Origin: an uncultured Candidatus Peribacteria bacterium
Lineage (GTDB): Bacteria; Patescibacteriota; Gracilibacteria; UBA1369; UBA12470
Assembly (NCBI GenBank): GCA_964603905.1
Contig: CAZRWH010000001.1
Coordinates: 3,146 to 65,155 of the forward strand
Direction of reading: 5' to 3'
Length of the DNA: 62,010 nt
The notes beneath the pieces were generated by a model. The model saw only the letters and a list, made by a program, of their open reading frames with translations, did no database searches and was not told the DNA's origin. Shown here piece after piece: positions 5,857-38,098 of the stretch. Numbering within the stretch: position 1 is the stretch's first letter; every line of letters starts with the position of its first letter. The translations under genes and the position numbers were made by a program.

Positions 5857-5892
5857 GATGATGAGTTATAATTTTAAGTTATATATAATTGG

Positions 5893-6249: not shown

Positions 6250-6332
6250 TAGGTAGTAGTAGTTAGTAGTGATAGTTGTAGTGTTGTAGTTGGTGGTAGT
6301 AGTGGTAGTTTTGCGCCTTTGGTGCTGGCTTG
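6250..6332 (-). repeat. extended family-A G-free leader (63 nt) plus small hairpin 6313-6325
   Basis: 6250-6312 has no C on the plus strand (GGTAGTAGTAGTTAGTAGTGATAGTTGTAGTGTTGTAGTTGGTGGTAGTAGTGGTAGTTTT). The hairpin is GCGCC-TTT-GGTGC with a G.T wobble. Confidence 0.65.
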
Positions 6333-7376: not shown

Positions 7377-7413
7377 TATAATGAGAAGTGAGTAATGAGT
7401 AGTGAGAAGTTAA
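7377..7413 (-). repeat. family-B G-free leader upstream of atpC
   Basis: TATAATGAGAAGTGAGTAATGAGTAGTGAGAAGTTAA, with no C on the plus strand. Confidence 0.65.
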
Positions 7414-7968: not shown

Positions 7969-8119
7969 GTTTTTGGTAGTTAGTAGTTGATAGTGGTAGT
8001 TGTAGTCTTGGTGTCCCGCTCAGCGGGACGGAATTTATATTTTGCGCTTTTAGCCTTGCGCATTATTTCAGACTTGTAACCCCGTTCGAGCGGACTCGAC
8101 CGGGGATGAAGTCAAAAAT
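7969..8119 (-). repeat. atpK-atpE spacer: long hairpin (8083-8108), GTCCCGC hairpin repeat (8009-8029), family-A leader (7975-8006)
   Basis: TGGTGTCCCGCTCAGCGGGAC recurs at 15981-16001. GGTAGTTAGTAGTTGATAGTGGTAGTTGTAGT abuts the atpE ATG. Confidence 0.65.
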
Positions 8120-8593
8120 TTATACTTGGATTCCGAAGATCAGAAGTACACTAACAAGTAGACCAAGTACCGCGTATGTTTCTACCATCGCTGACATGAT
8201 TACCGCTTTACCTGCGTTAGCTGGGTTTTTAGCGATAACTTTTAGACCTGTAGCAGATACTTTTCCTTGGTGGATACCAGAGAAAAGAGACGCGAATCCA
8301 ACTGGAATACTTGCTCCTAGGAATTGCATTCCTGTCGAAGAAGAAAGAGAAGCAACTTCTCCTCCTAGTAGTCCGATTTGCATAAGGATCAAAAGAGCTC
8401 CTAGGAATCCGTAGATACCTTGAGTACCTGGAAGAGCTTGCATAAGAAGGATTTTACCGAAAAGTTCTGGCTTTTCAGTTGTAACTCCCGCTCCAGCTTG
8501 TCCTGCAAGACCTACACCGATACTTGATCCGATTCCTCCGCATACTGCGGCGATTGCAGCTCCGAAGACTGCTAGTGCTAGACCTGTGTCCAT
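8120..8593 (-). CDS. atpK: V/A-type ATP synthase proteolipid subunit K (4-TM, duplicated c)
   Basis: 157 aa. LPGTQGIYGF, SGIHQGKV and AMVETYAVLG align with the Enterococcus hirae NtpK motifs. Confidence 0.93.
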   Translation of the reverse strand: MDTGLALAVFGAAIAAVCGGIGSSIGVGLAGQAGAGVTTEKPELFGKILLMQALPGTQGIYGFLGALLILMQIGLLGGEVASLSSSTGMQFLGASIPVGFASLFSGIHQGKVSATGLKVIAKNPANAGKAVIMSAMVETYAVLGLLVSVLLIFGIQV

Positions 8594-8643
8594 AGTTTTT
8601 TTAGGTTAAATTGTTATGGTTATTTTAAATTTTGGCTAATTTC

Positions 8644-13474: not shown

Positions 13475-13564
13475 GCTTGTAGTATAGGGGAGTGATGATT
13501 TCGGTTCCAGTTTTTTGGATCAAGATTTAACAAAAATTTAATATATGTGCGGTATTTTCTGGTT

Positions 13565-13960
13565 ATGAATTATATAAAAAAGTTTTTTGAATGGATTGTG
13601 TTGAAGCGCGATTTAGACAAGAAAAATCATAAACCTCCTTATGTTCCTGAAGGGGAAATATGGTGGGCGAGTATTGGAGAAAATGTGGGGGCTGAAATAA
13701 ACGGGAAGAGCCGTCTGTTTTCTAGACCAGTTATTGTTTTGAAGAAATTGTCTAAAGGGTTTTATTTTGTTGTTCCGACTACTACTCAGGTTCGAAATGG
13801 GAATTGGTATGTTGTTTTTTATGATAATAAATTTTGTGTTACTGCCTGTTTGCATCAAGCGAGGCCCGTTGATTATAGGCGTTTTTATTCAAAATTGGGC
13901 GAATTAGATAAAAGTGAGTTTGATAAACTCAAGAAGGGGTTTGAAAGTTTGTATTTATAA
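13565..13960 (+). CDS. MazF/PemK-family toxin-like protein (no adjacent antitoxin seen)
   Basis: EGEIWWASIGENVGAEINGK...RPVIVL...VVPTTTQ is the PemK fold signature. The ORF track starts at GTG 13547; the ATG at 13565 is more likely. Confidence 0.7.
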   Translation: MNYIKKFFEWIVLKRDLDKKNHKPPYVPEGEIWWASIGENVGAEINGKSRLFSRPVIVLKKLSKGFYFVVPTTTQVRNGNWYVVFYDNKFCVTACLHQARPVDYRRFYSKLGELDKSEFDKLKKGFESLYL

Positions 13961-14037
13961 AAAATGTTCCCCCCGTCTAGAACGGGGGGTCGTGGGTAAC
14001 CCCAAAGTACTGGAATTATACCTTGTGAGTTTGCTTC

Positions 14038-14349
14038 ATGTCAATTTTGCATGATAAAATATTGTCACTATATTTTGACAAATATGACATGGCTAAACCA
14101 AGAAGACTTAGACCTTTGATTCCTCAGGCGCATATTGATGCTCAAAGAGGTGTTGCTGAAAGAGCTGCTCAGAAAGATGCTGAATGGGGAGATCCTCCAA
14201 CAATTTCTGCTGACGAATTGGAGCAAATCAGATTAGAGGCCGCTGATTCTGCGCATGTCATGAGAAGGCAGAACGAAACTGCTGCTAAAGCTGCTATTGC
14301 TACTGAGCATGGCCCAGGTGTTTGTTTTGATCCACCATATGAAGGTTAG
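14038..14349 (+). CDS. hypothetical protein
   Basis: 103-aa ORF with no recognised family. An alternative start at MAKPRRL is possible. Confidence 0.4.
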   Translation: MSILHDKILSLYFDKYDMAKPRRLRPLIPQAHIDAQRGVAERAAQKDAEWGDPPTISADELEQIRLEAADSAHVMRRQNETAAKAAIATEHGPGVCFDPPYEG

Positions 14350-14594
14350 TGAGCAAATGGCAAAGAGCAGATGGCAGTTCGGAATTTTCTTTAATAAAAA
14401 ATATGTCTGAAGTAAAACAACCAAATGAGATTCCTTTAGCCAGGATTAAGGCAAGGCGCGAGATGCTTAATCGTGGTCGAGCAAAACTTCTTCAAAGTGA
14501 AGCACAAATTTATGGCCCGCGTGAAGTTTCTCAGGTTCTTGATGAACGTCGTCAGGCTGTTCGGGATCTACGAATTTTGCAAGAGCTAGCTTAG
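14349..14594 (+). CDS. hypothetical protein
   Basis: 81-aa ORF from GTG. An in-frame ATG at 14403 (MSEVKQPNE...) is more likely. No family recognised. Confidence 0.4.
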   Translation: MSKWQRADGSSEFSLIKNMSEVKQPNEIPLARIKARREMLNRGRAKLLQSEAQIYGPREVSQVLDERRQAVRDLRILQELA

Positions 14595-15865
14595 ATGGTT
14601 GGGGTAGCTATGATCTCAGCTTTTAGGTTGATTAGGTTGAGTGTTATTCGACATACCTCAGCTCGGGTGATGCTGTTACCTCCGCCGAATGTTCCATCTG
14701 CATATCCCGAAACAACCTCTGTTTCCGACGCTTCCATTAGGTATGTGTAGTACCAGTCATCTTCTGTTACGTCTGAGAATGAGTTCACCCAATCTTCTTC
14801 ATCTCCTAGGAAGACTGACGCTCCGTTTAGGTCTTCTACTCCTGATGCTTCGATTAGAATTTTTAAAGCTTCTGCTCGGTTTACCTCATTTGCTGGTGCG
14901 AAAGTGCCGTCAGGATATCCTCCAATTATTTCGTATGCATATGCTGAGTTGATGTAGTTCGTGAACCATTCTCCGTCTTCTACATCTGGGAATTGTGAGT
15001 CTGCTTCGTAAACTTCATATCCAAAAGCTTCAAGTGCAATTTTTGTGATTGCTGCTCTGTTGATGTAATCGCTTGGTCCAAAAGATCCGTCTGGATATCC
15101 TTCAACTATTCCTAGTTCGGCAAGTTCCATGATGTCGTCATATGCCCAATGTCCATCAATGTCCGAGAATGTTATTTCTACTACTTCTTCCTCTTCTTCG
15201 GTCTCGGTGTTTTCTTCCTCAGTTGTTTCTTCTTCCGGGCTAACTTCTTCTATTGTGATTGAAGTTGAAGAGCTTATGTTTCCTTCTGAATCCATCGCGT
15301 AAATATAAAATTTATTTGATGCGTTTTGGTTAAGTTCTACTTTTACAGAGAATGTTCCGCTTGATGTTACGAAATCTTCTCCAGTGTCTGCTCCTGAAAC
15401 TACTATTGTAGATCCAACCTCTGCAGTTCCTGTTAATGTGACCGCGTCTGCGTCAACAGGTGAGTCCATATCGTCTACTGTTGGTGTGTCTGGAGCTGTT
15501 CTGTCTTCTCCAGTCTCTTCTTCTGCTGCTTGTGCTTCAGCTTCGCTTTCAACAATTGTTACTGTCACGATTTCTGATGGTTGTCCGTCCTCTCCAACTG
15601 CTTGGATTGAAAAAGTGTTTGTTACTTCTTGACCAAGACTGACTGTTCTTTCCCAGTCTCCGTTATCGTCAGCATATACTGGTGAGAGCATGTAAGGTCC
15701 ACCTGTTACTGTGATTTGAGCTCCTGGCTCTGAAGTCCCAGTCAAAGTGTATTTGTCAGCATCGATTGGTGATGTTGGATCGTCTACTGTTGGTGCATCT
15801 GTTGCAATTGCTTGCAAAGGCATTAGTAGGATTGCCAAAATTGTGGCGAGTGTGAGTTTTTTCAT
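14591..15865 (-). CDS. secreted surface protein: two Ig-like repeats, acidic linker, three SLH domains
   Basis: Signal peptide MKKLTLATILAILLMPLQAIA. Repeated PTVDD..SP(I/V)DAD..TLTGT units. Three FSD/FPD...GYPDGTF...NRAE SLH motifs. Confidence 0.85.
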   Translation of the reverse strand: MKKLTLATILAILLMPLQAIATDAPTVDDPTSPIDADKYTLTGTSEPGAQITVTGGPYMLSPVYADDNGDWERTVSLGQEVTNTFSIQAVGEDGQPSEIVTVTIVESEAEAQAAEEETGEDRTAPDTPTVDDMDSPVDADAVTLTGTAEVGSTIVVSGADTGEDFVTSSGTFSVKVELNQNASNKFYIYAMDSEGNISSSTSITIEEVSPEEETTEEENTETEEEEEVVEITFSDIDGHWAYDDIMELAELGIVEGYPDGSFGPSDYINRAAITKIALEAFGYEVYEADSQFPDVEDGEWFTNYINSAYAYEIIGGYPDGTFAPANEVNRAEALKILIEASGVEDLNGASVFLGDEEDWVNSFSDVTEDDWYYTYLMEASETEVVSGYADGTFGGGNSITRAEVCRITLNLINLKAEIIATPTI

Positions 15866-23942: not shown

Positions 23943-24320
23943 TTAGCTGTTTTTGCCGTATCGTATTTTCTTTTGCTGGGATATTAGGCTGTTGAGCATT
24001 TTCATTACTTCATCTAATAGTTTGTCTACTTTTATGTAGTCTAGGTGTTGTGTTTTTCGGAGTTCTTTGGAGATGGTTATTTGTGTTTCTAATTCACCTC
24101 CTGATCCATAAGAATAAAGCAAGAAACGTATGAAGTTGCCAGTTGATAAAAGCATTCGACCTTCTGCGATATTTGAAGCAATTGAAACTGAAGCTCTGCG
24201 CATTTGCGATGTTAATCCGTAGACCTCTTCTTTTGGGTAATGTTCTGTAAGTTGATATACAGCTTTGACTAATTGCAAAGATTTTTTCCAAACCAATAAG
24301 TTTTTATAAGTATGCATCAT
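23943..24320 (-). CDS. four-helix-bundle protein (23S rRNA intervening-sequence protein family)
   Basis: 125 aa. YKNLLVWKKS..L...VY.LT..YPKEE.YGLTSQMRRASVSIASNIAEG is the family signature. Confidence 0.85.
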   Translation of the reverse strand: MMHTYKNLLVWKKSLQLVKAVYQLTEHYPKEEVYGLTSQMRRASVSIASNIAEGRMLLSTGNFIRFLLYSYGSGGELETQITISKELRKTQHLDYIKVDKLLDEVMKMLNSLISQQKKIRYGKNS

Positions 24321-25489: not shown

Positions 25490-25518
25490 TTAACATGGAG
25501 GCTTTTTTCAGGTATAAT
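25490..25518 (+). promoter_or_regulatory. candidate sigma70-type promoter of the acidic surface-protein operon
   Basis: TTAACA-N17-TATAAT about 27 nt upstream of ATG 25545. Confidence 0.5.
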
Positions 25519-25544
25519 CATTAGATTTAAAAGCTAAGTCGAAC

Positions 25545-27368
25545 ATGTTCAATCTTCTTAACAACCTGGCGGAGAGGCTAAACATCAGGGTTTCTGTTAT
25601 TGTTTTGGTTGTTCTTTTGTTTTCTGTTTCTACTTTGCAGACGGTTGTTACAAATGGCGGATGTGCAGGGGATTGTTCAACTACGACAAGCGTAACTTTG
25701 ACTACAGACTCTACGGCACCTAATCTTCAGTTGGTTAATCCTCCAAGTGGTGCTTTGTGTGCTTCTACTTTTGAAATGGAAATTCTTTGTGAACGTCTCG
25801 CAACTGTTTATGTTAATGGTGCCAACATTGGTACTGTTCCTGGAGATGATGGGCTTATCAATCATACTGTTAGTCTTAATTATGGGATTAATTCTTTTTT
25901 GATTTACGCAATAGACTACTGGGGGAATCAAACTTCTGATTTGAATGTGTCTATTACTCGAAGATCTGATTGTGGTGATGGTGGTCCTGGAGGGGGAGGT
26001 GATGAGGGTCCTTATGGTGGAGGTGTGCCTGATCCTGGAGATGACCCTGACGATGATGACGACGATGATCCAGAGGAAGATCCTGCGGAAGAAGATGATG
26101 ATGACGAGCCTTCTTCAGATCCTGAAGAAGAGGAGGAAGAGTTGCCAGGGGACGAGCCTTCTTTAGATCCTGAAAAAGAAGATGAAGTTGTTGAAGAGGT
26201 ACAAGAAGAAGAGCCTGAAGTCGAGGTAGCTGATGAAGACCTTTATTCTTATTGGATTCCGTATTATCCAGAGGGCGAGCCTTTTGTTTATCATGATGCA
26301 GCTTCAACATGTACTGCGGGTTGTTTGGAGGCTTTGCAAGATTTGAAGCCAAAAGCTTATTTACAAGATTCTGACGATGATGGTATCTCAGATGCTTATG
26401 AGATGTTCTTGAGTTGTGGGGAGGATCTGGATGATATATCGGTTTCTGATAATGAACTTGGTTCTTGTAGTTATATTACCTATACGGACTCGGATGTTTA
26501 TGTGCGCGGACAGGCTTTGGATGAAACAACTAAGGTTGAATTTTATTTAAGTGACGATAATGGTGGATACGAATATCTTTCATCTGTTGTCCCTAATGAA
26601 AATGGCGAATTTTTCTTTAAACACCCTGCGTGGGTTGATGGAGTCTATGAGCTTGTAGCTCGAGAATATGACGAACAAAAGTTGTTGCGTGAATATGGGC
26701 ATTCAATTCGTGTTGATATAGATGAAGATGTTTATTTGGATGTTGATAATCTCCAATACGGAAAAGGGGATAATACAATTCCTATGCCACTTTTAGTTCA
26801 GACAAATGTTTTAGGAGCGGCAACACAACTCGTTTATCAAAACAATGCTAAGACATATATGATTGGAGAGACAGTTCCTATGTCTGAAGTTGTTGTTGTA
26901 TGGGATGAAGAGTCTGCTTTGATTAGCAGTGGCATTTCTGATGCTGATACTGGGCGTTTCAAAGTTGAGACACCTTCTACCTTGCCGATTGGTTTTTATA
27001 ATTCATATGTTTACAGTATTGATTTGAGTAATTGGTTTATGAGTAGCTTGGCGACAGTTCAGTTTGAGATAACAATTGTGGATAAAATAATTGGATTCTT
27101 TGTTGCTACTCAGCTTCTTTGTATTATTCAATGGATTCTTTATATTATCTTGGCTGTGTTGTTGCTTATTGAAAAAAACACAGAGCACAGGAGGCGGAAG
27201 TATACTATTGGTATTTTGACGCTGTTCTTTGTGGCATGGATTTTTTGGCCTGGATTATGGATTTGTAAGTATAGTTTGTGGCCGGTTGTTTTGGTTTTGG
27301 TTTTGTTAATTCTGAAATTTATTTATAAAAAACTTTTTAAGAAAGACCTGGATGATAAAAACAATTAA
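25545..27368 (+). CDS. membrane-anchored surface protein: Ig-like domain, poly-D/E/P tract, C-terminal multi-TM anchor
   Basis: 607 aa. N-terminal hydrophobic segment. GDDPDDDDDDDPEEDPAEEDDDDE tract. Three hydrophobic segments in the last 90 aa. Confidence 0.7.
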   Translation: MFNLLNNLAERLNIRVSVIVLVVLLFSVSTLQTVVTNGGCAGDCSTTTSVTLTTDSTAPNLQLVNPPSGALCASTFEMEILCERLATVYVNGANIGTVPGDDGLINHTVSLNYGINSFLIYAIDYWGNQTSDLNVSITRRSDCGDGGPGGGGDEGPYGGGVPDPGDDPDDDDDDDPEEDPAEEDDDDEPSSDPEEEEEELPGDEPSLDPEKEDEVVEEVQEEEPEVEVADEDLYSYWIPYYPEGEPFVYHDAASTCTAGCLEALQDLKPKAYLQDSDDDGISDAYEMFLSCGEDLDDISVSDNELGSCSYITYTDSDVYVRGQALDETTKVEFYLSDDNGGYEYLSSVVPNENGEFFFKHPAWVDGVYELVAREYDEQKLLREYGHSIRVDIDEDVYLDVDNLQYGKGDNTIPMPLLVQTNVLGAATQLVYQNNAKTYMIGETVPMSEVVVVWDEESALISSGISDADTGRFKVETPSTLPIGFYNSYVYSIDLSNWFMSSLATVQFEITIVDKIIGFFVATQLLCIIQWILYIILAVLLLIEKNTEHRRRKYTIGILTLFFVAWIFWPGLWICKYSLWPVVLVLVLLILKFIYKKLFKKDLDDKNN

Positions 27369-30300
27369 GAAAAACTTGGCGGTCTTGATGGTGCTATCCC
27401 TTGTTGTGATAGGAAGCTGTATTGTGCTTGCGAAAGGTAATGATGGTCTTAATATCGGTTTCGATGATTTGGATGATTTGGCTGAAGTTCAAGTGATTGT
27501 TCATAGTGGTTCTCAAGATCGTGTTTATGTTCGTGATGCTGTGTCTGTGACAAACCCTATTGTTTTTGATGGTTTTGATTCATTGAACAGGTTGCCGTAT
27601 TTGATCGAAGCTAATCTGTACGATTTCGATCATAATATAATTGGTTCTCATGAGAAGGTTGTAATTCCACTGAGCGAGGTCGCTATTGTGGTTGGGATTT
27701 TGATGGTGATTTTGGGGTTTGTTGCTTGTAAAGTTTGTAAATTAAGAATGTACTATGCTTTTATTTCGGGTCTTTTGGTTGTTTTTGCTGGTGTATTCCT
27801 GGTTGTGCCTGGAATTGATATCGAAGGGACAAATTATTCGGCCAATATCTCTGATTTATTGTTTATAGATGTTGTTGATGTTGAAGGTTCTATTAAAGAC
27901 CTAGAATCAGAGGAAGTTGTTGCCGATGTTGAAGTAGAAGCTGTTATTGAGGAAGTTCAGGAGGAAGAAGTTATCGAAGAAGAAGTAGTTGAAGAGGTGG
28001 TAGAGGATGTCGAAGTTTTGGATGTTCCTATAGCAGAAATAATTGAGGAAGAGAAAGAAGAGGTGATTGAAGTTGTGGATCTTGAAGAGGAAGAAGAACT
28101 TGAAGAAGAGGTGGTAGATGAAGATGAAGTTGTTTTAGAGGAAGAAGAGGTCGTGATTGAAGAAATTGAAGACGAAAAGAAAGAAGAGGAAGAAGAGGTG
28201 TTTGAGGCAAAGCTGTATGATGCTGTTGATATTGATGTGGATTCAGAAAGTCAGGCTGTGGTTGTTGCATTTACTGACGAGCAGATTGATGAGCTTTATG
28301 ACTTTGAAAAATGGGTTCCTGTATTAGAGTCGTTGGAGGATATGACGTGTTTATCTGCTTTGGATGATGCTTATGATCGTCGTGTTGCTTCAATTTTTGC
28401 TGGTGTAGAGGAGGAAACGGAGGAAGCCGTGGAGGAAGAAAATGAGGAAGAAGAGATTGAGGTTGAGGAAGTTGAAGACGAGGAACAGGAGATCGAAGAA
28501 GAAGAGGTTGAAGAGGAAGAAGAGATAGATTCTGACGTGAATTTTGAATTATGGATTCAGTGGCTTGAAGATGAAGAGGCTTGGTATACTTGGGATGATG
28601 AAGATGAGAGTTGGTATAAGTGGATTTATAATGAAGAGGTTTGGAATAGATGGAATGTAGAGGAAGAGTCTTGGGATGTTTGGAATTCTGAGCTTTTGGA
28701 ATGGATTGTTATTGAAGAGGAAGACGAACTTGAAGAAGAGGTGGCCGAGGAAGAAGAGGTTGTGATTGAAGAAATTGAAGAGGAGGAAGAAGAGGACACT
28801 CCTCAATGGCATGAATGGACTGGTGGAGGATGGGATTCTTGGCAGGAGTTGATGACAGAGGAAAAAGAGGAATTGAAAGAAGAATTGGATGAAGACGAAC
28901 AAGATGAGGAAGACGAGATCGAGGACAAAAAAACATGGTATAGATGGGGCGATCATGAAAGTTGGTCGTCATGGATTGAGCAAGAGGTTGAAGACGAGGA
29001 AGAGGAGGAGTCAAAACAATGGCATGAATGGCTAGAAGCGAAAAATGATTTAGAAGGAGATGCTGAAGAAGACGAGGAAGAGGAGGAAGAAGAGGCTATT
29101 AGGTCTTGGTATAAATGGGATGGTTCTGAGGATGCATGGTTTAGATGGAACGTTGAAGATGAGAAATGGGAGGAGATTGAAATTGAAGATACAAATAGTA
29201 TTGCCTATAAGTTAAAGAATAAGTTCTCTGCATGGGGGCAGGCTTCATTGTCCCAGTTTGACTTTAAAGGTATTAAGGACAGTGTCTTGCATCTTTGGGA
29301 TGCGTCTCAGGGGTCGGTTAGTCTTTTTGATTTCGATCTTTTGGCTGCTAGAGTTCCTTTGGAGGCAGAATTGTTTAAGAAAAATAAGGACAAAAACAAG
29401 GCAATGAATTATTTGTCGCCATGGGCTTATTCTGGTGATGATGAGGATGAAGATGATAATGATGATGACGACGATCGTGATGACGAGGAAGAAGAGAGTG
29501 AGGAGGATGAGGTTGAAGAAGTTGAAGACGAAGAACAAGAGATCGAAGAAGAGAATGAGGCTGATGAGGAGGCTGTTGTTGAGACGGAAGAATCAGATGA
29601 ACTAAATGAAACTGAGGAAGAGGTTGTTGTTACTGAGGAGAAGGACGACGATAAGCAGGATGAGGATGAAGAAGAAAAAGAAGACGAATTGGTATTGCCG
29701 ATTGTATCGATTTTTGAGCCTGAGAGTTGGGTAGTTGGCAATCTTGAATCGTTTGAGGATCTTGACTCTTCGTTTGGTGTTCTTGATGACATGGATAAAT
29801 GTATTTCTATATTCTCTTATATTTCTGAAGGGGAATACGAGGAGTTTTTGGAGAGTTGGCTTGATTCTAAGTTGTCGGCTGCTAGAGCTATTGCTGAAGA
29901 GGAAACTTCCAAAGCACAAGAAAAGAAGATCTTGGTTAGAAGTGTGGATGATATTGTTGTAGAGAACGTTGTTATTACTCCTAATAACCCTAATTTAGAT
30001 TCGACTTTGGCGCTGGATTACATTGTGACAAACGTTGATAGTCACCCTGGTCTTTCGTTTGACTACACTTGGCAGCGAAAGAATAATTCTGGTCAATACT
30101 ATGAGATGGCATATGTTAAGAGCTCTGAAATTAAGCAGGATTTGATGAAGCCTAAATTCAAAAATATTCCTTATGGTTATGATGTGAAACGATACGAGCT
30201 TGGTTTCGATTTTGAATTTTATGGAGATGTTTATAATTCAATATATATATCCCCTGAAGGCTATGCTAGTTTCCATGACTTGTCTTCTGTTTTGGACTTT

Positions 30301-31251
30301 GAAGAAGGGCAACAATCGGTTATTGCTCCTTGGATGCCTGTTGATAGTTCTAAGATAGATTTTGATAAATCTTACTACCAAGTTAAATTGTCTGACGATG
30401 AGGATGGCAACCAGGCTTTGGTTTATTGGTCTATAGCATTGCTTGATGAGAAAAAAGAGATTGAGGTATATCTTTATTTGCTTGAAGACGAAAACTTGAT
30501 GATTTTTGAATATGACACTCTTCCTGACTCTCTTGATAGCAAGGACATTTACTCAGGTGTTCAGGATTATGGTAAAAAGCTTGCTGTAGGTGATGATGTC
30601 GAGATCTCCTATTTAGGGGTTTTCTCCAAAAAGAAATCTGTTGTTATTACTCCTTATTCTCGATTTGACGATATTGTTGGTGAAAGAGGGCCGACTCTTA
30701 ATCAGTCTCTTCAGGACGGTTACACTTATAGATTAAAAGTTGTTCCTTATCTTAATAATTTCTACGGAGAGGAAGGGTATTCGCGAGAGGTTACTGTTGT
30801 TGATTATGGTGGTGATGTTGATAATGAGTCTTGCAGTGGGTATACCAATGTTTGGTATTTCTTAGGGCCGGCTAGTTTTCATACTTATCCTGATGATGTT
30901 CCTGTTGTTTCCAAGGAGTCAGATCAGATGTTGCATATGGATTTAATTGAATACTTTGGCGAAGAAGAACTAAAAAATATGTCTAGTCTTTATCTTAGGA
31001 TAGATTCATTTGATTCTCGTGACGGTGGTTATTCTTTGGATTCGTCGGCTTTTTATTTGGAAGTTGCTGGTGTTGTCGAGTCTCCTGATGTTTACCATGG
31101 CGTTAAGTATTATGAGATTGATTTAACACCATATTCGGTTTATGGATTGCCTTTGCCGACTATGGAGGTGTTTATGACTTTGCCGGCGGATGCTCCTTCG
31201 GGGGTCTATGACTTCTATGCTTATAGTAATATTTATTATATTGAGGAATGA
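27352..31251 (+). CDS. giant hyper-acidic surface protein with WxxW decapeptide repeats and a non-acidic C-terminal region of about 430 aa
   Basis: 1299 aa. Signal/anchor plus two TM segments. E/V/D repeat tracts. W-x2-W-x6 periodicity. Its start overlaps the upstream gene by 17 nt and its stop overlaps the next ATG (ATGA). Confidence 0.75.
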   Translation: MIKTIKKNLAVLMVLSLVVIGSCIVLAKGNDGLNIGFDDLDDLAEVQVIVHSGSQDRVYVRDAVSVTNPIVFDGFDSLNRLPYLIEANLYDFDHNIIGSHEKVVIPLSEVAIVVGILMVILGFVACKVCKLRMYYAFISGLLVVFAGVFLVVPGIDIEGTNYSANISDLLFIDVVDVEGSIKDLESEEVVADVEVEAVIEEVQEEEVIEEEVVEEVVEDVEVLDVPIAEIIEEEKEEVIEVVDLEEEEELEEEVVDEDEVVLEEEEVVIEEIEDEKKEEEEEVFEAKLYDAVDIDVDSESQAVVVAFTDEQIDELYDFEKWVPVLESLEDMTCLSALDDAYDRRVASIFAGVEEETEEAVEEENEEEEIEVEEVEDEEQEIEEEEVEEEEEIDSDVNFELWIQWLEDEEAWYTWDDEDESWYKWIYNEEVWNRWNVEEESWDVWNSELLEWIVIEEEDELEEEVAEEEEVVIEEIEEEEEEDTPQWHEWTGGGWDSWQELMTEEKEELKEELDEDEQDEEDEIEDKKTWYRWGDHESWSSWIEQEVEDEEEEESKQWHEWLEAKNDLEGDAEEDEEEEEEEAIRSWYKWDGSEDAWFRWNVEDEKWEEIEIEDTNSIAYKLKNKFSAWGQASLSQFDFKGIKDSVLHLWDASQGSVSLFDFDLLAARVPLEAELFKKNKDKNKAMNYLSPWAYSGDDEDEDDNDDDDDRDDEEEESEEDEVEEVEDEEQEIEEENEADEEAVVETEESDELNETEEEVVVTEEKDDDKQDEDEEEKEDELVLPIVSIFEPESWVVGNLESFEDLDSSFGVLDDMDKCISIFSYISEGEYEEFLESWLDSKLSAARAIAEEETSKAQEKKILVRSVDDIVVENVVITPNNPNLDSTLALDYIVTNVDSHPGLSFDYTWQRKNNSGQYYEMAYVKSSEIKQDLMKPKFKNIPYGYDVKRYELGFDFEFYGDVYNSIYISPEGYASFHDLSSVLDFEEGQQSVIAPWMPVDSSKIDFDKSYYQVKLSDDEDGNQALVYWSIALLDEKKEIEVYLYLLEDENLMIFEYDTLPDSLDSKDIYSGVQDYGKKLAVGDDVEISYLGVFSKKKSVVITPYSRFDDIVGERGPTLNQSLQDGYTYRLKVVPYLNNFYGEEGYSREVTVVDYGGDVDNESCSGYTNVWYFLGPASFHTYPDDVPVVSKESDQMLHMDLIEYFGEEELKNMSSLYLRIDSFDSRDGGYSLDSSAFYLEVAGVVESPDVYHGVKYYEIDLTPYSVYGLPLPTMEVFMTLPADAPSGVYDFYAYSNIYYIEE

Positions 31252-31829
31252 TTATAAAAAAATTACAATTTGGTGTGTCTTTGATTGCGGCGAGTATTAT
31301 TCTAATTATTGTGTTGTCTTCTGTGGCTACGGCGGGCACCTGTGTTGGGGCAGGGTATTTGATGATTACTTCTTCTCCTTCTGTTGAGAATTTCGATGAA
31401 AGTTTATCAACTTCTGCTGCTGACGTGATTATTGAGCACGTGTTCACAAGTCCTATTGAGGTTGAGGATTCGCGTGCTGAAACTCTTGGATTTGTATTGA
31501 GTATGCATGCTACAGATTTTCAGGATATTTCTGGAGAGACTAATGACACGATTACGGTTGATAATTTATATGTTATGACGGATTCCGATAATATCCTTGA
31601 ATATGATGACCCTTGTGATGACGGGACGGGTATATCTTTGTCTTGTAGTACTTATACTGCGTTTAGCGATTCTAATCAGGATGGCCTTTCGGATGACTTA
31701 GTCATTTTGGAAGGGGATGTAAGGGCGCGCGTTGGGTATTACACTATTTATCCTAAAATCAAATTGGTTGTGCCTGGTGGGACATTAAGTGGGACTTTTA
31801 GTACGACTTTGACTTATACTCTTATGTAA
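31248..31829 (+). CDS. WxL-like secreted surface protein (C-terminal ...TLTYTLM)
   Basis: 193 aa. N-terminal hydrophobic segment. VEDSRAETLGFVL and LVVPGGTLSGTFSTTLTYTL resemble the WxL-domain blocks, with Y in place of W. Confidence 0.55.
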   Translation: MIIKKLQFGVSLIAASIILIIVLSSVATAGTCVGAGYLMITSSPSVENFDESLSTSAADVIIEHVFTSPIEVEDSRAETLGFVLSMHATDFQDISGETNDTITVDNLYVMTDSDNILEYDDPCDDGTGISLSCSTYTAFSDSNQDGLSDDLVILEGDVRARVGYYTIYPKIKLVVPGGTLSGTFSTTLTYTLM

Positions 31830-31868
31830 AAAAAGAGCCATCACTACAATTCATGATGACTCTTTTAA
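31828..31868. terminator. bidirectional terminator between convergent surface operons
   Basis: AGAGCCATCA...TGATGACTCT (9 of 10 bp) flanked by an A-run and a T-run. Confidence 0.5.
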
Positions 31869-31887
31869 ATGTTGTAAATGTATTTCC

Positions 31888-32544
31888 TTAGTCTTTTTTG
31901 TTAGTGAAAGCGATAATCATTGCTGCAATAAGAATTATTGCGAGTGCACCTACGTACTTTGTGTAGCTTCTTTCGCTGTTTAGTTCCATTTCTTCTTCTA
32001 CTTGGTCCATTACTCCATATCGCTCTTCTTTGAATTCTTTGAACTCGTCTTCTGTTACAACTTGTATTAGTATTGTTTTCCCCATCTTTACTACTGATGT
32101 TACGCCTGATCCTGCTGTCGATCCTGTGTCTTCATTGTAATATCTTGCGAATACTCCTCCGTAATAATCTCCCAAAGGTGTATCTGCTGGGATGTCGAAA
32201 TCTAGTCTTACTACTGCCGTTTCGTTCCCACCGACGCTTACGATTTCTTCTTCAAGTTGTCCCCATAAGTTTACTTCTTTTGCAGGCTCGTCTTCATGGA
32301 CCATTGTAGGGACATTGGATATCGCGTTTAATTCTCCGGTTGAGTGTTGCAGGTTTAGATAGAAAGATTTTACTTCTTCGTCGTTGTTGCTTAATAAGAA
32401 CTCTGTATACATTGATTCCCCTGGTGCGATTTTTAGGGTCATTGGTCCCACGTCGTCATATATTGAGCTGACGCTGAAAGTACCTGCTAGTGCGGTTCCA
32501 GCTGTTAATACTGATAGCAGTAATGCTGTGAGTAATTTTTTCAT
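31888..32544 (-). CDS. DUF916-like cell-surface protein with C-terminal TM anchor
   Basis: 218 aa. Signal peptide. LWGQ...VRLDFDIPADTPLGDYYGGVF signature. C-terminal TM YVGALAIILIAAMIIAF. Confidence 0.5.
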   Translation of the reverse strand: MKKLLTALLLSVLTAGTALAGTFSVSSIYDDVGPMTLKIAPGESMYTEFLLSNNDEEVKSFYLNLQHSTGELNAISNVPTMVHEDEPAKEVNLWGQLEEEIVSVGGNETAVVRLDFDIPADTPLGDYYGGVFARYYNEDTGSTAGSGVTSVVKMGKTILIQVVTEDEFKEFKEERYGVMDQVEEEMELNSERSYTKYVGALAIILIAAMIIAFTNKKD

Positions 32545-32557
32545 TTTTTTGTTTTGG

Positions 32558-33211
32558 TTATTTTTTATTTGGGTCGTAAAGCTGCAATAGTAATATTACG
32601 ATTAAGGCCGATACAGTAGTGGTTACTATCATTAGCATATATTGTGCTGTTTTGTCGCGGTCCCAGCCTCCTGTGTATTTTGCTAGTTCATTTGGTGTTT
32701 CGGTGACAGTAATTATTACTTGGGACACCATTCTAACTTGGGATACGACTTGGCTTTTCCCTTCTTCTACTGTTGGGACGTTTGTAGTAGAGATACCCCC
32801 GTAATATTTTCCGACAGGTGTGTTTTCTGGGACTTCAATTGTGAAATTTAAAATTACTTCCTCTTTCTTTTCAAGTTCTATACTGTTTTGGTCAAAGCTG
32901 ATCCATGTGCCAACTTCTTCTGGCTTTTGTTCATTTGCATCAGGGGTGAATTTACTGTTGTCTAGTGTTGCGTCGATACCTTGTATTTCTATGTATTTTT
33001 CTGAGTCAGGTCCATTTTCGATTAATATAGAGTCTTGAATTGTTGTGCCGGGTGCAATCTCATGTATGAAGGATCTTGGTGATTCCATGTTTGGTATTGC
33101 TGGTGCTACTGCAAATCCGGTACTTATGTCAAACTTTGTTATTTCGTAATATATTGCACCTATTAGGACAAGATCTAACAGTATTAAAAGTGCTATTATT
33201 TTTTTGAGCAT
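32558..33211 (-). CDS. DUF916-like cell-surface protein with C-terminal TM anchor (paralogue)
   Basis: 217 aa. TWISF...ILNFTIEVPENTPVGKYYGGIS. C-terminal TM. Confidence 0.5.
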   Translation of the reverse strand: MLKKIIALLILLDLVLIGAIYYEITKFDISTGFAVAPAIPNMESPRSFIHEIAPGTTIQDSILIENGPDSEKYIEIQGIDATLDNSKFTPDANEQKPEEVGTWISFDQNSIELEKKEEVILNFTIEVPENTPVGKYYGGISTTNVPTVEEGKSQVVSQVRMVSQVIITVTETPNELAKYTGGWDRDKTAQYMLMIVTTTVSALIVILLLQLYDPNKK

Positions 33212-33213
33212 AA

Positions 33214-34329
33214 TTATTTAACTTTTACGTTTGGAATTATGATTGTAGTCCCTTTCATTACGAAGTATGGGGGTTTGATTTTGTTCATTTTGGATAATAG
33301 TTTCCAGTCAACTCCTTTTGATAGAGCGATATCCATTAGGTTCTCATTTTTCTTTGCTGTGTATTTTTTCCCTTCTGCAAGTAGTTTCTTCATTTTTGCC
33401 TCCTTGATGTATAAGAATGCAAATGCAATTAGGAATGCTAAGATGCTAACAATGGTTTCAACTATTGGTAGTATGATGAATGTTACGCTTTTGGACTCTG
33501 TCTTAATGGTTGATGGATCAATATCTCCTATTATTTTAGCTCTGTAGTATTCGAAGTCTATTTTTGTAGAAAGAAGACCTGCAACTGGCACTTTGTCAAG
33601 TTTTATTGACTGTATGTTCGTATCTCCAGGTGTTATTTGGCTAAGTGAATTCTCTTGCTCTCCGATTGTGAATACGAACAGGTTTTTTGTTGTTAGCTTT
33701 GCATCAAGTCCAACGTTTACATTCCCATTATTCTCTGTGTATATGTCTATAACGTGTGATCCTTCTTCGTTTTTTGAGTGTTTAATGCTTTGGATTGCAA
33801 AATCCCATACTTCTTCTCCTGTTACGGTTACGTAAAGTCTCTTCCCAATGTTAACGACACTTACTGTCCCCGAAGCAGCTATGCCGGTGCTTTCTATTAC
33901 GGCAGGTTGTATTAGTATTCCTCCGACATAATCACCAGGGCTTGCGTTTTCTGGTACTGTTATGCTGAAGCAACTTTCTATATTTGTTTCAGCTGGTACA
34001 TCTAGTATTGTTTCTTCAGTATGGAACCATGCGCCTATGTGGTTTTTTTCGTCATCTGCCTTCTCCAGCGCAAAGTTGCCACTATCTGTTATTACGCTGT
34101 CTACGCCGTCGACTTTTACTGATTGTAACTCCTCTTTAAGATTTGACAGTACAAAACAGTCCTCGATTGTTTCTCCCGGATCAAGTTCGAATGCAAATTG
34201 TGTTCCGCTTGCTCTTTCAATGTTTTTTGATGCTCCGATCCCCATTTTTTCTTGTCCGTGCGCAAGAGGTATTAGTAGGATTGAGAGCATTGTTGCAAGT
34301 GCAATGCTTGCCGTTATTTTTTTTGACAT
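33214..34329 (-). CDS. DUF916-like surface protein with TM segment and C-terminal LysM domain
   Basis: 371 aa. AWFH...CFSITVPENASPGDYVGGIL. TM FIILPIVETIVSILAFLIAFAFLYI. LysM-like YTAKKNENLMDIALSKGVDWKLLSKMNKIKPPYFVMKGTTIIIP. Confidence 0.55.
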   Translation of the reverse strand: MSKKITASIALATMLSILLIPLAHGQEKMGIGASKNIERASGTQFAFELDPGETIEDCFVLSNLKEELQSVKVDGVDSVITDSGNFALEKADDEKNHIGAWFHTEETILDVPAETNIESCFSITVPENASPGDYVGGILIQPAVIESTGIAASGTVSVVNIGKRLYVTVTGEEVWDFAIQSIKHSKNEEGSHVIDIYTENNGNVNVGLDAKLTTKNLFVFTIGEQENSLSQITPGDTNIQSIKLDKVPVAGLLSTKIDFEYYRAKIIGDIDPSTIKTESKSVTFIILPIVETIVSILAFLIAFAFLYIKEAKMKKLLAEGKKYTAKKNENLMDIALSKGVDWKLLSKMNKIKPPYFVMKGTTIIIPNVKVK

Positions 34330-34371
34330 GGTTTTTTGTTATTTGTTTTTATTTTTAAATTGAAAGAGGTC

Positions 34372-34638
34372 TTATTCGATTGTTAGCTCTAATAATGTTT
34401 GTACCCCTTGAGATTCGTATATTTCCCCTTTTTCTGGGTCCTCTGTTAGAACGAATATCTCTGTCTCAGTGTCTTCTTCTGTCTCAGTGTCAGTGACTTC
34501 GGTTGTTGTATCTTCAAAGATGTTTTGTATGTTTGTTTGTAGGTTCTCTGAAGAGTCTGTCATGCTCGCTTTGACCAATACTAGAGAAGAAAACAGTAGT
34601 ATCGATATCAGCAGGCTTAGCAGTAATGCTTTTTTCAT
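34372..34638 (-). CDS. small acidic secreted protein
   Basis: 88 aa. Signal peptide followed by a T/E/D-rich tract. Confidence 0.5.
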   Translation of the reverse strand: MKKALLLSLLISILLFSSLVLVKASMTDSSENLQTNIQNIFEDTTTEVTDTETEEDTETEIFVLTEDPEKGEIYESQGVQTLLELTIE

Positions 34639-34740
34639 GGCTGATGGTGGTTATAGGTTAAAATGCTCAGCACAGTAGATATACATGACCTGGTGGTATT
34701 TTTCAACCTAAAGTTTAGGTTTGGCATCTCTTTAAATGAA

Positions 34741-34774
34741 AAGGACACCCTGCTATAAATAGTAAGGTGTCCTT
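34741..34774. terminator. hairpin downstream of the WxL-like gene
   Basis: AAGGACACC...GGTGTCCTT (9 bp) with U-rich flanks on both strands. Confidence 0.45.
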
Positions 34775-34848
34775 TGTTTGTTTTCTAAGTTTGTCCGTCT
34801 CGTTTTTTGGCCTTAAGGCCAGTTTTGATTTACAATTAATCTTGTTGA

Positions 34849-35436
34849 CTATGCAGTAACTAGAGTAAATGTAAGAGTGTTTTGGTAAGTACCAGCTTGA
34901 GTACCACCTGGGATAGTGATTTCTAGATCAGGAGTAAGACCACAATCTACCGCACGGATAGTTGAGTCTGCAGTTACGATATCGTAAGTAGATAGGTCGT
35001 CGATTTGAACGTTTTCTGTCAATACCATTCCTGTAGAAGAACAAGAAGCTGCAGAAAGGTCTTGCCATGAAGTACCTAGACTATCGATATCGAAGTCAAC
35101 GTTAGCATCAGTAGCACCAAGAACGATTTGTTGACCTGTGCTCCAATCTGAAAATCCTTGTGGAAGAGAAACATTAACTGTGAAAGTAGATCCATCAGAT
35201 GTAAGATCCTCGATTTGGAAACTGTCAGTTGTAGCTGTAGCTGTAATTACTTGGTCAGAAGCACTTGTGCTTTGGTTAGCAAAGTTCATAGATGCAGGAA
35301 CTGTTAGAACTGGAGAAACTGCACCGTTGATTTGTACTTGAGAAGTAGTATCGTCAGCAGAAGCAAGACCGAAAAGAACTACGTTTGCTACAAGAGCAGC
35401 AGCAACTACGATTGCTGTAAGTTTTTTGTTTTTCAT
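34849..35436 (-). CDS. WxL-like secreted surface protein (C-terminal ...TLTFTLVTA)
   Basis: 195 aa. Signal peptide. LTVPASMNF, IEDLTSDG and LEITIPGGTQAGTYQNTLTFTL resemble the WxL-domain blocks. Confidence 0.6.
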   Translation of the reverse strand: MKNKKLTAIVVAAALVANVVLFGLASADDTTSQVQINGAVSPVLTVPASMNFANQSTSASDQVITATATTDSFQIEDLTSDGSTFTVNVSLPQGFSDWSTGQQIVLGATDANVDFDIDSLGTSWQDLSAASCSSTGMVLTENVQIDDLSTYDIVTADSTIRAVDCGLTPDLEITIPGGTQAGTYQNTLTFTLVTA

Positions 35437-35609: not shown

Positions 35610-35647
35610 GGTGCTTGATAGAATTTATCTTAAAAAAAGAAATAAAC

Positions 35648-38098
35648 ATGAAAAATCGTTCAAAAATCTTATGGGGTCTTGGTGCTGCATGGCTTTTTAC
35701 TGTTGTGGGTGGGTATTTTTATACTCATTTCGATGTTATAGCTACCCCTCTTCATCCATTATTTGAACTGGTTGATATAACTAGGTATTTCCTTGTTATT
35801 TTGGTTCTGGGAGTTTTGGGCTTTGTTGTTTTTAAGAAGCTTTTACCTCAAAAATTGAAGTTAAGTGCAGTTTTTTTGATTTGTTTGTATTTGTTTTCAT
35901 TGTTTTTCTTTGGGTATAGCAGGTTCTTTTTTAATGATTTTGGAGTTTATCATGGTGATTATCTTGTTCAAACTGAGGAAGGCGTGGCCTTTTATCGAGA
36001 TGTGTCGGAGGTCGATCCGAGTTTAGTTTTATTATTTGATGGAAAGATTAGTTCGGCTCCTATTGCTCAATATGGAGAGGTTTGGGATATGGTTGGTGAT
36101 AAATTTGAGTCTGTTTCACTGATTCCTGCTGCATGGTATATGGTTGTGAATTTGTTTGTACCTCTTGGTCTGTTGATTGGTCTTTTGTTGGCTGTTTATG
36201 TTTATGGTAGTTTTGTGGTTAGGAGATTGGATGTGGGAGGATTAAAGGGGTTTTTGTATTCGATGGGGTTAGGATTTATGATTATGGGGCTTGTTTTGTT
36301 AGGAGGGCTTTTTACGGGATATTATAACCCTTATGTTTTTTGGGCTGTGTTGGCCGGAATGCCACTAGTTTTGATTATTATTGATGCGGAGCATTATTGG
36401 GATATTTTGAAAGGATTTTTCAAATGGAGAAGCGCTCCTTTATCTGATATTTCGGTTTTGTCCTTTGTTTCTATTGCTTCTATTGTTGCGTTTTTTAATT
36501 GGAATTTAGTTCAGTCTTTTGCTCTTTTTCCTTCTGCTTTTGATGACTTTATTCTTTATATGTATTTGCCTCGTGAGCTTTATTTCCGAGGGGAGTTTCT
36601 ATGGGGGTATATGCCTTATGCGTTTGCGCTGGTTCAGTCTTTGGGTATTTTTATGGCTAAGAGTGCAACCTCTATTGCTCAATCTGTTACTTCCGTATGT
36701 TCGTTGTTTGCGGCTTTGGCTGCGTATGTTTTTGCTAGGAAGTACTTGTCCAAAGGTATGTCATGGTTTGTTGCTGCGTTTTTGATGTCGTTGCCTGTGG
36801 TTTTTTATCATGGTCATGTTGATTTAAAGGTAGAGATGCCTCTGATGTTTTTGTCATTTATTTCTTTATTGGCTCTGGATGATTGGTTTGATACTGGTAA
36901 GAAGAAATGGCTTTTCTTGTCATGTTTGATTGCGGGGTATATGGTCTCGGTTAAATTGACGGCTCTTCTTTTTGCGTTAGTTCTGGTGTTGGTCATTTTG
37001 ACTGTATTTTTCCGTAATCTTTATCTGGAAAGAACGAAGTATCTTAAGCAAGGTGTTATTGGGTTGATTTTATGTGCTGTGTTTATGGCAATTCCGGTTT
37101 TGCCTTGGATTGGATTGCATTCCTATTCTTATGGGCAGATGGTGACTAGTGTTGCTGAGCTTTCTCATAGTCATAATGTTGATGCAGTTTCGGTTTCTTA
37201 CGATGAGTTATTAGTTGATGCTTCACAATGTTCTTCGCCTGGTGGAGATTATATGGATTATGGCAAATATATGTCTGATGTATCTGGTGTTTGGAGTTTT
37301 GTTCAGATGCCATGGAATTATGTGATGCAAATTTCTTTGCTTTCACCTGCTACTGACCTGGGTCCTGTTTTCTTGGCTATTTTGCCTATCGGCCTGGTTG
37401 CTCTTCTTATGTTCCGTAGAAAAGAAGGTTTTGGATGGAAGGGGCTTTTATATCTTGGTGCCGGTGTTGCTTATTGGGTGATTTGGGCGTTTTTGTATAA
37501 ACAGGTTCTTTGGTATGGAATTACGGGTTTTGTTTTCTTGTTTATTCTTCTGATTGCATCTCTTTCTCTAGTTAAGAAGGATAGTATTAAAAAAGGTATT
37601 GCGATTGGTGTTTTGTCTGTGCTGGTTTTGACGTCAATTTTCTGGAGAGGTAATTGGTATGTTTCAAGAATGAACGTACAAGCTTTGTATTTGGGAGGGG
37701 AGCTAACCTTTAGTGAGTATGTTAACAATCGTTTTCATGATCATTTTTCTTCGATTGGTGTTTTGAATTCTGACATGGATTCGAAGATTTATGCTACGAA
37801 TGTTCAAACTGTTCTATTCTTTGTTAACAATGGTAATGAAAGGGTTTATGCAGATCGGTATATTGATTTCTTTAGCTGTTTGGATCAATTCCACAATGGA
37901 GATGGGGATGCAATTTTGTCTGACATGCAGGCTACAGGATTTGATTATGTTCTTTTCTATCAGCCTGTTTATGATCCTACTCTTGGAGAAGACTTGTACA
38001 ATGCAAATATGCGACTGCTTCAATTCTCTGAGGAGTATTTGTACTATGCAGGGGGTGATGGAAATTTCTTTACTTATGCTATTCCTCCAGCGATATAA
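35648..38098 (+). CDS. large polytopic membrane protein, possibly a GT-C-fold glycosyltransferase or polymerase-like enzyme
   Basis: About 816 aa from ATG 35648 (the ORF track starts at TTG 35615). More than 12 hydrophobic segments plus a soluble C-terminal domain. No catalytic motif verified. Confidence 0.6.
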   Translation: MKNRSKILWGLGAAWLFTVVGGYFYTHFDVIATPLHPLFELVDITRYFLVILVLGVLGFVVFKKLLPQKLKLSAVFLICLYLFSLFFFGYSRFFFNDFGVYHGDYLVQTEEGVAFYRDVSEVDPSLVLLFDGKISSAPIAQYGEVWDMVGDKFESVSLIPAAWYMVVNLFVPLGLLIGLLLAVYVYGSFVVRRLDVGGLKGFLYSMGLGFMIMGLVLLGGLFTGYYNPYVFWAVLAGMPLVLIIIDAEHYWDILKGFFKWRSAPLSDISVLSFVSIASIVAFFNWNLVQSFALFPSAFDDFILYMYLPRELYFRGEFLWGYMPYAFALVQSLGIFMAKSATSIAQSVTSVCSLFAALAAYVFARKYLSKGMSWFVAAFLMSLPVVFYHGHVDLKVEMPLMFLSFISLLALDDWFDTGKKKWLFLSCLIAGYMVSVKLTALLFALVLVLVILTVFFRNLYLERTKYLKQGVIGLILCAVFMAIPVLPWIGLHSYSYGQMVTSVAELSHSHNVDAVSVSYDELLVDASQCSSPGGDYMDYGKYMSDVSGVWSFVQMPWNYVMQISLLSPATDLGPVFLAILPIGLVALLMFRRKEGFGWKGLLYLGAGVAYWVIWAFLYKQVLWYGITGFVFLFILLIASLSLVKKDSIKKGIAIGVLSVLVLTSIFWRGNWYVSRMNVQALYLGGELTFSEYVNNRFHDHFSSIGVLNSDMDSKIYATNVQTVLFFVNNGNERVYADRYIDFFSCLDQFHNGDGDAILSDMQATGFDYVLFYQPVYDPTLGEDLYNANMRLLQFSEEYLYYAGGDGNFFTYAIPPAI

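Follow-up and report, generated by a model that had tools for sequence, protein, structure and literature searches.

An island of about 10 kb (25490-35436) was analysed in a 62,010-nt stretch of DNA from an uncultured Candidatus Peribacteria bacterium; the whole stretch is called the window below, and open reading frames (ORFs) were listed over 23-38 kb. The proteins of the island probably form, by non-covalent assembly, a WxL-type complex on the cell surface of a monoderm-like bacterium belonging to the Candidate Phyla Radiation (CPR; Peregrinibacteria). As far as sequence comparison can tell, it is a real, conserved gene set and a very divergent version of the known WxL complexes, joined to extremely acidic membrane-anchored giants. 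This is the best explanation because of the WxL profile evidence, the DUF916 membership of three proteins, the agreement with a published definition of WxL gene clusters, the synteny and the adjacent PMT_2 gene. The envelope context supports it as well, because the window encodes an SLH-domain protein and because Peribacteria make peptidoglycan (PMC4736985). Further support comes from related assembly modules, since the operon of one relative carries cohesin-like and dockerin-bearing genes. The core finding extends a known kind of system and is not a new kind. An earlier sequence-only reading had placed eight genes here, and all eight ORFs were recovered at the coordinates it gave.

Divergent small WxL proteins and DUF916 paralogues

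The two small secreted proteins of the island, of 193 aa (31248-31829, plus strand) and 195 aa (34849-35436, minus strand), have a significant C-terminal block in common. Hydrophobic N-terminal segments at residues 8-26 and 6-24, respectively, are predicted signal peptides by hydropathy, and the Ser+Thr content is 23-25%. The direct match of the 193-aa protein to Pfam WxL (PF13731) reached 15.9 bits, with a gathering cutoff of 25, and the 195-aa protein gave no direct match to this model. Orthologues scored 15-23 bits, with almost all of the model covered. An HMM built on eight members from Peregrinibacteria matched Actinomycetota ORFs located directly upstream of DUF916 genes (E = 5e-11 and 5e-8), and those two ORFs passed Pfam WxL with 38.3 and 26.7 bits. 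When the profile of the small WxL family was run exhaustively against 1.84 billion representatives, 510 matches were obtained at E <= 1e-3 and 58 at E <= 1e-10. PF13731 was matched by 85 of the 143 top relatives (best 3.7e-49). Most relatives were about 190 aa long; some were large, had the domain at their very C-terminal end and carry lectin-type domains such as Laminin_G_3, F5_F8_type_C and Lectin_C. A word-indexed homology search with the 193-aa protein returned only itself, and one with the family alignment gave 6 matches; the only relative with a source name was a 'hypothetical protein', and none of the WxL-like relatives returned by the word-indexed search carried a precomputed Pfam domain. 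Because the family profile finds Pfam-passing WxL proteins and 85/143 relatives match PF13731, we accept both proteins as divergent members of the WxL superfamily on transitive profile evidence, and the WxL-like label they had been given is borne out.

Small WxL proteins have two Trp-x-Leu motifs about 106 residues apart, the second near the C-terminus (PMC9772566). The corresponding motifs were FVL and YTL in the 193-aa protein, 105 residues apart, and FTV and FTL in the 195-aa protein, 102 residues apart. In both, the second motif lies 1-3 residues from the C-terminus and the WxL-like domain extends to the last residue. Position and spacing thus agree with the published pattern, and the literal Trp-x-Leu motif is absent from both proteins. 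A close relative of the 195-aa protein (P0015) retains the canonical TWTL, and the Pfam-passing actinobacterial WxL proteins have Y in the second motif (YTI). The change from W to F or Y is real, conservative and common, and the literal motif is therefore not universal in the family. The sequence-only reading was right that the W is replaced; the replacement is a less distinctive trait than that reading suggested, since the actinobacterial proteins also have Y. A family HMM scan detected no other WxL-like or DUF916 genes in the rest of the window. Two more small WxL-like genes were seen on other contigs of the same sequencing run, SRR8146440 (L027 4932-5516 and L031 1452-2045; L-numbers label the related loci that were compared with the window). 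One of them retains the canonical TWTL and adjoins a PGA_cap gene, and the other adjoins murJ.

Three tandem minus-strand genes encode proteins of 371 aa (33214-34329), 217 aa (32558-33211) and 218 aa (31888-32544), which are paralogues with about 26% identity and common W and P..PGDY.GG motifs. The 217-aa protein passed PF06030 (DUF916, now WxLIP_PGBD) with 29.8 bits vs a cutoff of 27.3. The 371-aa and 218-aa proteins were sub-threshold for this model (22.4 and 14.2 bits), and the 218-aa protein matched the HMM of the DUF916 family with E = 1.5e-14. In a 14-member alignment, which includes six CPR orthologues and seven actinobacterial relatives, 13 of the 14 members matched PF06030. The family profile also matched the solved EfmWxLIP1 of Enterococcus faecium (9i25_C, 9i1y_A) over the PGBD, with E = 1.3e-5, the alignment ending where the PGBD ends. 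The match covers the N-terminal strand ('nFayeldpG' vs 'YFDLLVAP'); Hassan et al. propose that this strand of DUF916 inserts into WxL (PMC10599100). Because the 217-aa protein lies above the cutoff, 13/14 relatives match and EfmWxLIP1 is found by the profile, the three proteins are assigned as DUF916 paralogues, predicted to be C-terminally anchored in the membrane. The earlier description of three tandem anchored DUF916-like paralogues agrees with these results. PDB searches with single sequences gave no match.

WxLIPs consist of DUF916, DUF3324 and a transmembrane (TM) helix (PMC10599100). By hydropathy, all three paralogues have a C-terminal TM helix (residues 197-215 in the 218-aa and 191-209 in the 217-aa protein); a signal peptide with a single C-terminal TM segment, as expected of a WxLIP, was found, and the alignment has a conserved 'IPW'/TM block. 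The 371-aa protein additionally has a second beta-rich region of about 120 aa and aligns with actinobacterial DUF916 proteins through both extracellular domains. This second region is missing from the 217-aa and 218-aa proteins, which contain DUF916 only. At the C-terminus of the 371-aa protein, LysM (PF01476) was detected at residues 323-366 with 23.1 bits, above the cutoff of 20.9, as had been anticipated. LysM was found in all 7 CPR orthologues (best E = 8.6e-12) and not in the actinobacterial DUF916 proteins. It lies at residues 323-371 (window 33214-33363), after the TM helix and a K/R-rich stretch, and is therefore predicted to be cytoplasmic by the positive-inside rule.

A WxL gene cluster has been defined as at least one WxLIP plus at least two WxL genes within four genes (PMC10599100). 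The gene content of the island agrees with this definition, with two WxL-like and three DUF916 genes within 4.2 kb, DUF3324 being undetected. Known clusters are Csc of Lactiplantibacillus plantarum, the Swp/Lwp/Duf loci of E. faecium and the elr operon of E. faecalis. Like them, the island has at least two secreted WxL proteins beside one or more DUF916 proteins that combine a signal peptide with a TM anchor at the C-terminus. Its small WxL proteins are likewise about 190 aa long and acidic with about 105 residues between the motifs, and a small secreted protein and a large multi-domain surface protein are also encoded in the cluster. In contrast to the known clusters, the host is not a Firmicute but a CPR bacterium, F or Y stands in place of the motif tryptophans, and there are three DUF916 paralogues, two of them PGBD-only, with DUF3324 undetected. 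The large protein also differs, being N-terminally membrane-anchored and polyacidic with no detectable C-terminal WxL domain. Moreover, the small protein lacks LPXTG, LysM follows a TM helix, and a GT-C glycosyltransferase gene is a conserved neighbour.

The arrangement of a WxL gene directly upstream of a DUF916-TM gene was also found in Actinomycetota (for example Cryobacterium, Microbacterium and uncultured Actinomycetota; L008, L013, L015). There, too, the second motif is Y-T-I/L, and the alignment of the DUF916 proteins with the 371-aa protein takes in both extracellular domains. The actinobacterial pairs differ in that the DUF916 proteins examined lack LysM and their Pfam scores are higher; in these loci, nothing homologous to the giant's C-terminal region was detected, and neither PGBD-only paralogues nor a PMT_2 neighbour was noted. 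The gene arrangements compared here lie at L008 9114-10888, L013 9094-10891 and L026 7702-10903. In Streptomyces, a purple-acid/metallophosphatase gene, not a WxL gene, lies upstream of the DUF916-TM gene; that DUF916 neighbours metallophosphatases has been noted before (PMC12537917).

Gene order, transcription signals and the acidic giant

The nearest relatives of the island were found in metagenome-assembled genomes of Candidatus Peregrinibacteria, Peribacteria and 'Patescibacteria group'. The conserved order consists of small WxL, small acidic protein, LysM-type DUF916 and two short DUF916 genes, with a convergently oriented small WxL gene preceded by the giant. This order recurs in at least four other lineages of Peregrinibacteria/Patescibacteria and was seen in Peregrinibacteria GW2011_GWF2_43_17 (L002, identical to L032), in L003 (identical to L033) and in L004 with its 81%-identical relative L028-L030; L005 has a rearranged set of DUF916-like and WxL-like genes. 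Protein identities between the syntenic loci and the window were 22-40%, and among the 15 billion proteins of a large collection each protein of the island was a singleton. Since the genes are kept gene for gene in several distant genomes, they are real genes and not chance ORFs. Neither outcome that would have refuted the sequence-only reading was seen: profile searches placed the proteins in the families it had predicted, and in related genomes the genes were found together in the same order. In L002, genes for a cohesin-like 348-aa protein and an Ig+dockerin 440-aa protein lie between the giant and the small WxL-like gene (13058-15441, minus strand), which suggests a cohesin-dockerin assembly within the same surface complex.

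On the plus strand, three genes follow a sigma-70-like promoter at 25490-25518 (TTAACA-17-TATAAT), which lies 27 nt 5' of the first ORF. The site is a consensus match only, with 11/12 positions, and the promoter proposed at this position is confirmed to that extent. The genes encode a 607-aa membrane protein (25545-27368), the 1299-aa giant (27352-31251) and the 193-aa WxL protein. The first two genes overlap by 17 nt and the last two by 4 nt (ATGA), and these overlaps fit the translational coupling that had been predicted. The region's best sigma-70 match (35560-35532, minus strand; TTGACA-17-TATAAT with a TG extension, 12/12) stands upstream of the 195-aa gene. The two best matches of the region thus stand at the expected operon promoter positions; the total count of sigma-70-like sites in the region was no higher than in shuffles, and the placement alone is informative.

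A bidirectional terminator-like hairpin at 31831-31866 separates the convergent gene sets. On the minus strand it folds at -17.8 kcal/mol (z -5.5) and U7 comes after it; on the plus strand it folds at -10.6 kcal/mol (z -4.1). A second, terminator- or attenuator-like hairpin lies directly 3' of the 195-aa gene on the minus strand (34740-34775; -18.9 kcal/mol, z -5.6) and is followed by UUUUCAUUU, a U-run. Because of this hairpin and U-run, the minus-strand 'operon' may be two transcription units. The 195-aa gene may form a separate, possibly highly expressed, unit, or may be attenuated. Two convergent operons had been proposed; the two convergent gene sets stand, and the minus-strand set may be more than a single operon.

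Between the 195-aa and 371-aa genes lies the gene for an 88-aa secreted acidic protein (34372-34638, minus strand), whose orthologues of 86-96 aa occupy the equivalent position in L002, L003 and L028. This is the position of the small LPXTG protein in Firmicutes clusters, and the 88-aa protein lacks a sorting signal. It was considered as a degenerate LPXTG protein of the CscD/ElrB type. NCBIfam EF0750_LPXTG gave 19.6 bits, and this match was absent from three orthologues. The candidate was rejected, and only positional equivalence with the small LPXTG protein (EF2685/EF0750 family) remains. Small LPXTG proteins are frequent and not essential in WxL clusters, and no LPXTG-like signal was present in any ORF of the window. 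Neither an LPXTG-type sorting signal nor a sortase TLxTC motif was found in any frame of the window. The claim that an LPXTG partner and sortase are missing is thus correct for the window and does not extend beyond it, as Peribacteria genomes encode sortase A (PMC4736985).

All eight island proteins are acidic (pI 4.05-5.3). The 1299-aa protein contains 29.6% D+E vs a window median of 13.4%, in line with its earlier description as a hyper-acidic giant. A proteome-wide, halophile-like acidity was considered and rejected. The window median of 13.4% D+E and pI 5.8 indicates that the acidic bias is specific to exported proteins. The hydrophobic N-termini and C-terminal TM segments that had been described were found again by hydropathy.

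The giant starts with an N-terminal anchor (TM-like segments at 2-20, 110-128 and 137-155 by hydropathy), continues in a polyacidic stalk of about 700 aa and ends in a conserved globular region. Its C-terminal 440 aa or so are conserved in L002, L003, L004 and L028. The acidic stalk (20-30% D+E) is present in all orthologues, and its sequence is not conserved. No Pfam match was found in the C-terminal region, and a word-indexed search with the C-terminal alignment returned nothing. The profile of this region matched residues 62-185 of RemA, the Flavobacterium johnsoniae gliding adhesin (8gl6 chain D), with E = 9.7e-5. The RemA/NIDO-like module concerned has about 50-120 residues and the signature 'GFxFxFYGxxYxxlYvSxxGxxSF', and it recurs in other giant exported proteins from metagenomes. 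In two such proteins, sub-threshold NIDO matches were seen (23.1 and 18.7 bits vs 25). Outside clusters of the kind described here, no full-length relative of the giant's C-terminal region was found. RemA, too, is a very large surface protein with such a module of about 120 residues; no more than this one module is similar, and weakly so (E ~1e-4). A diderm exports RemA as cargo of its type IX secretion system (T9SS), whereas TM helices at the N-terminus would anchor the giant in a CPR cell of monoderm-like type.

Within the acidic stretch, residues 401-599 (window 28552-29148) contain 12 WxxW motifs; shuffles gave about 1, with a maximum of 7. Five of them are spaced at an exact 10-residue period (W401/404 to W441/444), and the stretch has 10% Trp vs 0.9% in the remainder of the protein. 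No WxxW motifs were present in the orthologues of the giant. WxxW is the eukaryotic C-mannosylation motif, and to link these motifs through C-mannosylation with the neighbouring GT-C enzyme is pure speculation.

The 607-aa protein has an N-terminal signal anchor, an Ig-like domain, a Gly/acidic linker, a beta-rich region and three C-terminal TM segments (TM-like segments at 18-36, 509-527, 555-573 and 576-594 by hydropathy), with a pI of 4.05. BLASTP (1e-9) shows homology between its Ig-like N-terminal domain and the Ig+dockerin protein of 440 aa in L002. It had been described as an Ig-like, acidic, multi-TM protein. The three C-terminal TM segments were confirmed, and for the Ig-like label Pfam gave only sub-threshold matches (Cadherin-like, 19.9 bits, and Big_13).

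Proposed assembly and competing explanations

By analogy with enterococcal and lactobacillar systems, the DUF916 proteins would be held in the membrane by their C-terminal helix and would capture the small WxL proteins at the peptidoglycan, giving a wall-embedded platform. Capture may take place through the conserved N-terminal 'aromatic-x-aromatic-acidic-L' strand of DUF916. The 1299-aa giant would be kept in the membrane by its N-terminal helices, with its polyanionic stalk, some 700 residues long, passing through the wall or over it and ending in a C-terminal adhesin-like, RemA/NIDO-like head. It could thereby substitute for the 'large WxL protein', the outward-facing, ligand-binding part of canonical clusters. 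The neighbouring GT-C enzyme (PMT_2) may glycosylate Ser/Thr-rich proteins of the cluster. If the analogy holds, such a complex would likely serve to attach the cell to a surface or to another cell, or to organise the envelope. That it is the organism's main attachment apparatus and serves an epibiotic lifestyle, as first suggested, is speculation.

Several observations weigh against the surface-complex reading. A large WxL protein with a C-terminal WxL domain belongs to the 'minimal organisation' of WxL clusters (PMC9772566), and none was detectable in the window. The giant itself was tried as the 'large WxL protein' and rejected at the sequence level: the WxL profile gave E = 2.4 against the 1299-aa protein, and hhalign gave a probability of 3-7% over the last ~43 columns, a generic terminal beta-hairpin. 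The link to RemA/NIDO is weak (E ~1e-4, with sub-threshold Pfam matches). DUF3324 (HBD) was detected in 0/14 DUF916 family members at E <= 0.1; of the two domains named for the profile check, DUF916 was thus found and DUF3324 was not. The predicted cytoplasmic location of the LysM of the 371-aa protein does not fit a simple model. AlphaFold2 gave unusable models both for the giant's C-terminal 440 aa from a single sequence (pLDDT 33) and for the 371-aa protein with its two paralogues as alignment (pLDDT 39).

The strongly acidic character of all island proteins and of the SLH protein, together with a stalk whose acidity and not its sequence is conserved in all giant orthologues, would also be expected of an envelope-structural, ion-buffering module. 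The platform would then anchor polyanionic proteins as a teichoic-acid substitute that binds cations and organises the wall or S-layer of an ultra-small cell, with no partner ligand. Related loci come, by their record names, from marine or mat-type metagenomes, which adds to this explanation. However, the best-conserved part of the giant is its globular C-terminal head and not the stalk, this head has a module common to RemA and other giant exported proteins, and Firmicutes WxL clusters are tied to adhesion (PMC9772566, PMC10599100). We therefore regard the ion-buffering explanation as not very likely.

A surface complex that captures or degrades polysaccharides, with glycan-binding large proteins and an unrelated PMT_2 gene, was also considered. 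Siezen et al. proposed carbohydrate utilisation for the csc clusters (PMC1534035), the L002 operon has cohesin- and dockerin-like modules, and large WxL-like relatives carry the lectin-type domains named above. On the other hand, neither the island nor its direct flanks yielded a glycoside hydrolase, a CBM or a sugar transporter, and the flanks consist of pyrimidine biosynthesis and housekeeping genes. We consider this explanation quite improbable. Both alternatives are less well supported than the WxL-type surface complex.

Finally, a chance neighbourhood of unrelated secreted proteins, in which weak matches reflect generic beta-sandwich features, could account for the sub-threshold Pfam matches of most island proteins and for the C-terminal 'P..G.Y' hairpin motif common to WxL, DUF916 and the giant, but it is hardly credible given gene order conserved at only 22-40% identity, the strong profile evidence and the same WxL-DUF916 pairing in Actinomycetota.

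Genomic neighbourhood and significance

Divergently from the 195-aa WxL-like gene, the gene for an 827-aa polytopic GT-C glycosyltransferase (PMT_2) is transcribed (35615-38098, plus strand). The protein matched PF13231 with 28.2 bits vs a cutoff of 26.1 and has about 12 TM segments. It is a conserved neighbour of the cluster: an orthologue of about 830-860 aa adjoins it in L002 (E = 3e-145), L004 and L028/L029. The flanks consist of chromosomal housekeeping genes (carA, pyrB, pyrC, pyrD, pyrK, pyrE, pyrF, ksgA, a P-type ATPase gene, trmD, rpoA, rpsD). Pyrimidine synthesis, peptidoglycan and large extracellular proteins belong to the known Peribacteria traits (PMC4736985). No tRNA or Rfam matches were found, and the GC content of the island is like that of the flanks, with no island signature in the GC profile. 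A mobile or foreign island was rejected on these grounds, together with the housekeeping flanks and the same PMT_2 neighbour in relatives.

Elsewhere in the window (14591-15865, minus strand), three SLH domains and Big_6 domains were found in one protein of 424 aa (pI 4.05), which indicates that the same organism also anchors surface proteins by the SLH/secondary-cell-wall-polymer route. A V/A-type ATPase operon, rather than an F-type one, was seen at 1936-10617 (minus strand; subunits D, B, A, C/AC39, c, I). Between pyrE and pyrF lies a 125-aa ORF (23943-24320, minus strand), which we presume to resemble the four-helix-bundle '23S rRNA-intervening-sequence protein' family.

To our knowledge, little except type IV pili has been described of the way in which CPR/Patescibacteria construct their surface and attach to partners. 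In the searched literature, no paper combines 'WxL domain' with Patescibacteria. WxL went unmentioned in the top-ranked papers of broader CPR and Saccharibacteria literature searches, and it is not mentioned in the passages of the Peribacteria genome paper that were consulted (PMC4736985). A published account puts the Firmicute share of WxL domains above 91% (PMC9772566).

With the results above, a conserved 'hypothetical protein' block of Peregrinibacteria gains a named, tractable analogue, the WxL-WxLIP complexes with a solved WxLIP structure. The WxL family is much broader than its motif name suggests. Hundreds of divergent environmental WxL-like sequence clusters were found, most with F or Y for tryptophan, and annotation based on motifs and thresholds will miss them. 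The partner parts of the island, namely the polyacidic N-anchored giant, the PGBD-only paralogues, the predicted cytoplasmic LysM and the GT-C neighbour, suggest how such a platform can be re-used. A bolder proposal, which we think unlikely, is that WxL/DUF916 platforms are ancient, widespread wall anchors of monoderms including CPR, and not a gut adaptation of Firmicutes. Peregrinibacteria would then have remodelled the platform around a polyacidic, glycosylated giant tethered to the membrane, their principal partner-attachment device, and the DUF916-LysM protein would link the surface complex with the cytoplasmic side, for instance with places where the wall is made. More speculatively still, the giant's 12 WxxW motifs together with the conserved GT-C neighbour could mean that the stalk is modified by tryptophan mannosylation or O-mannosylation.

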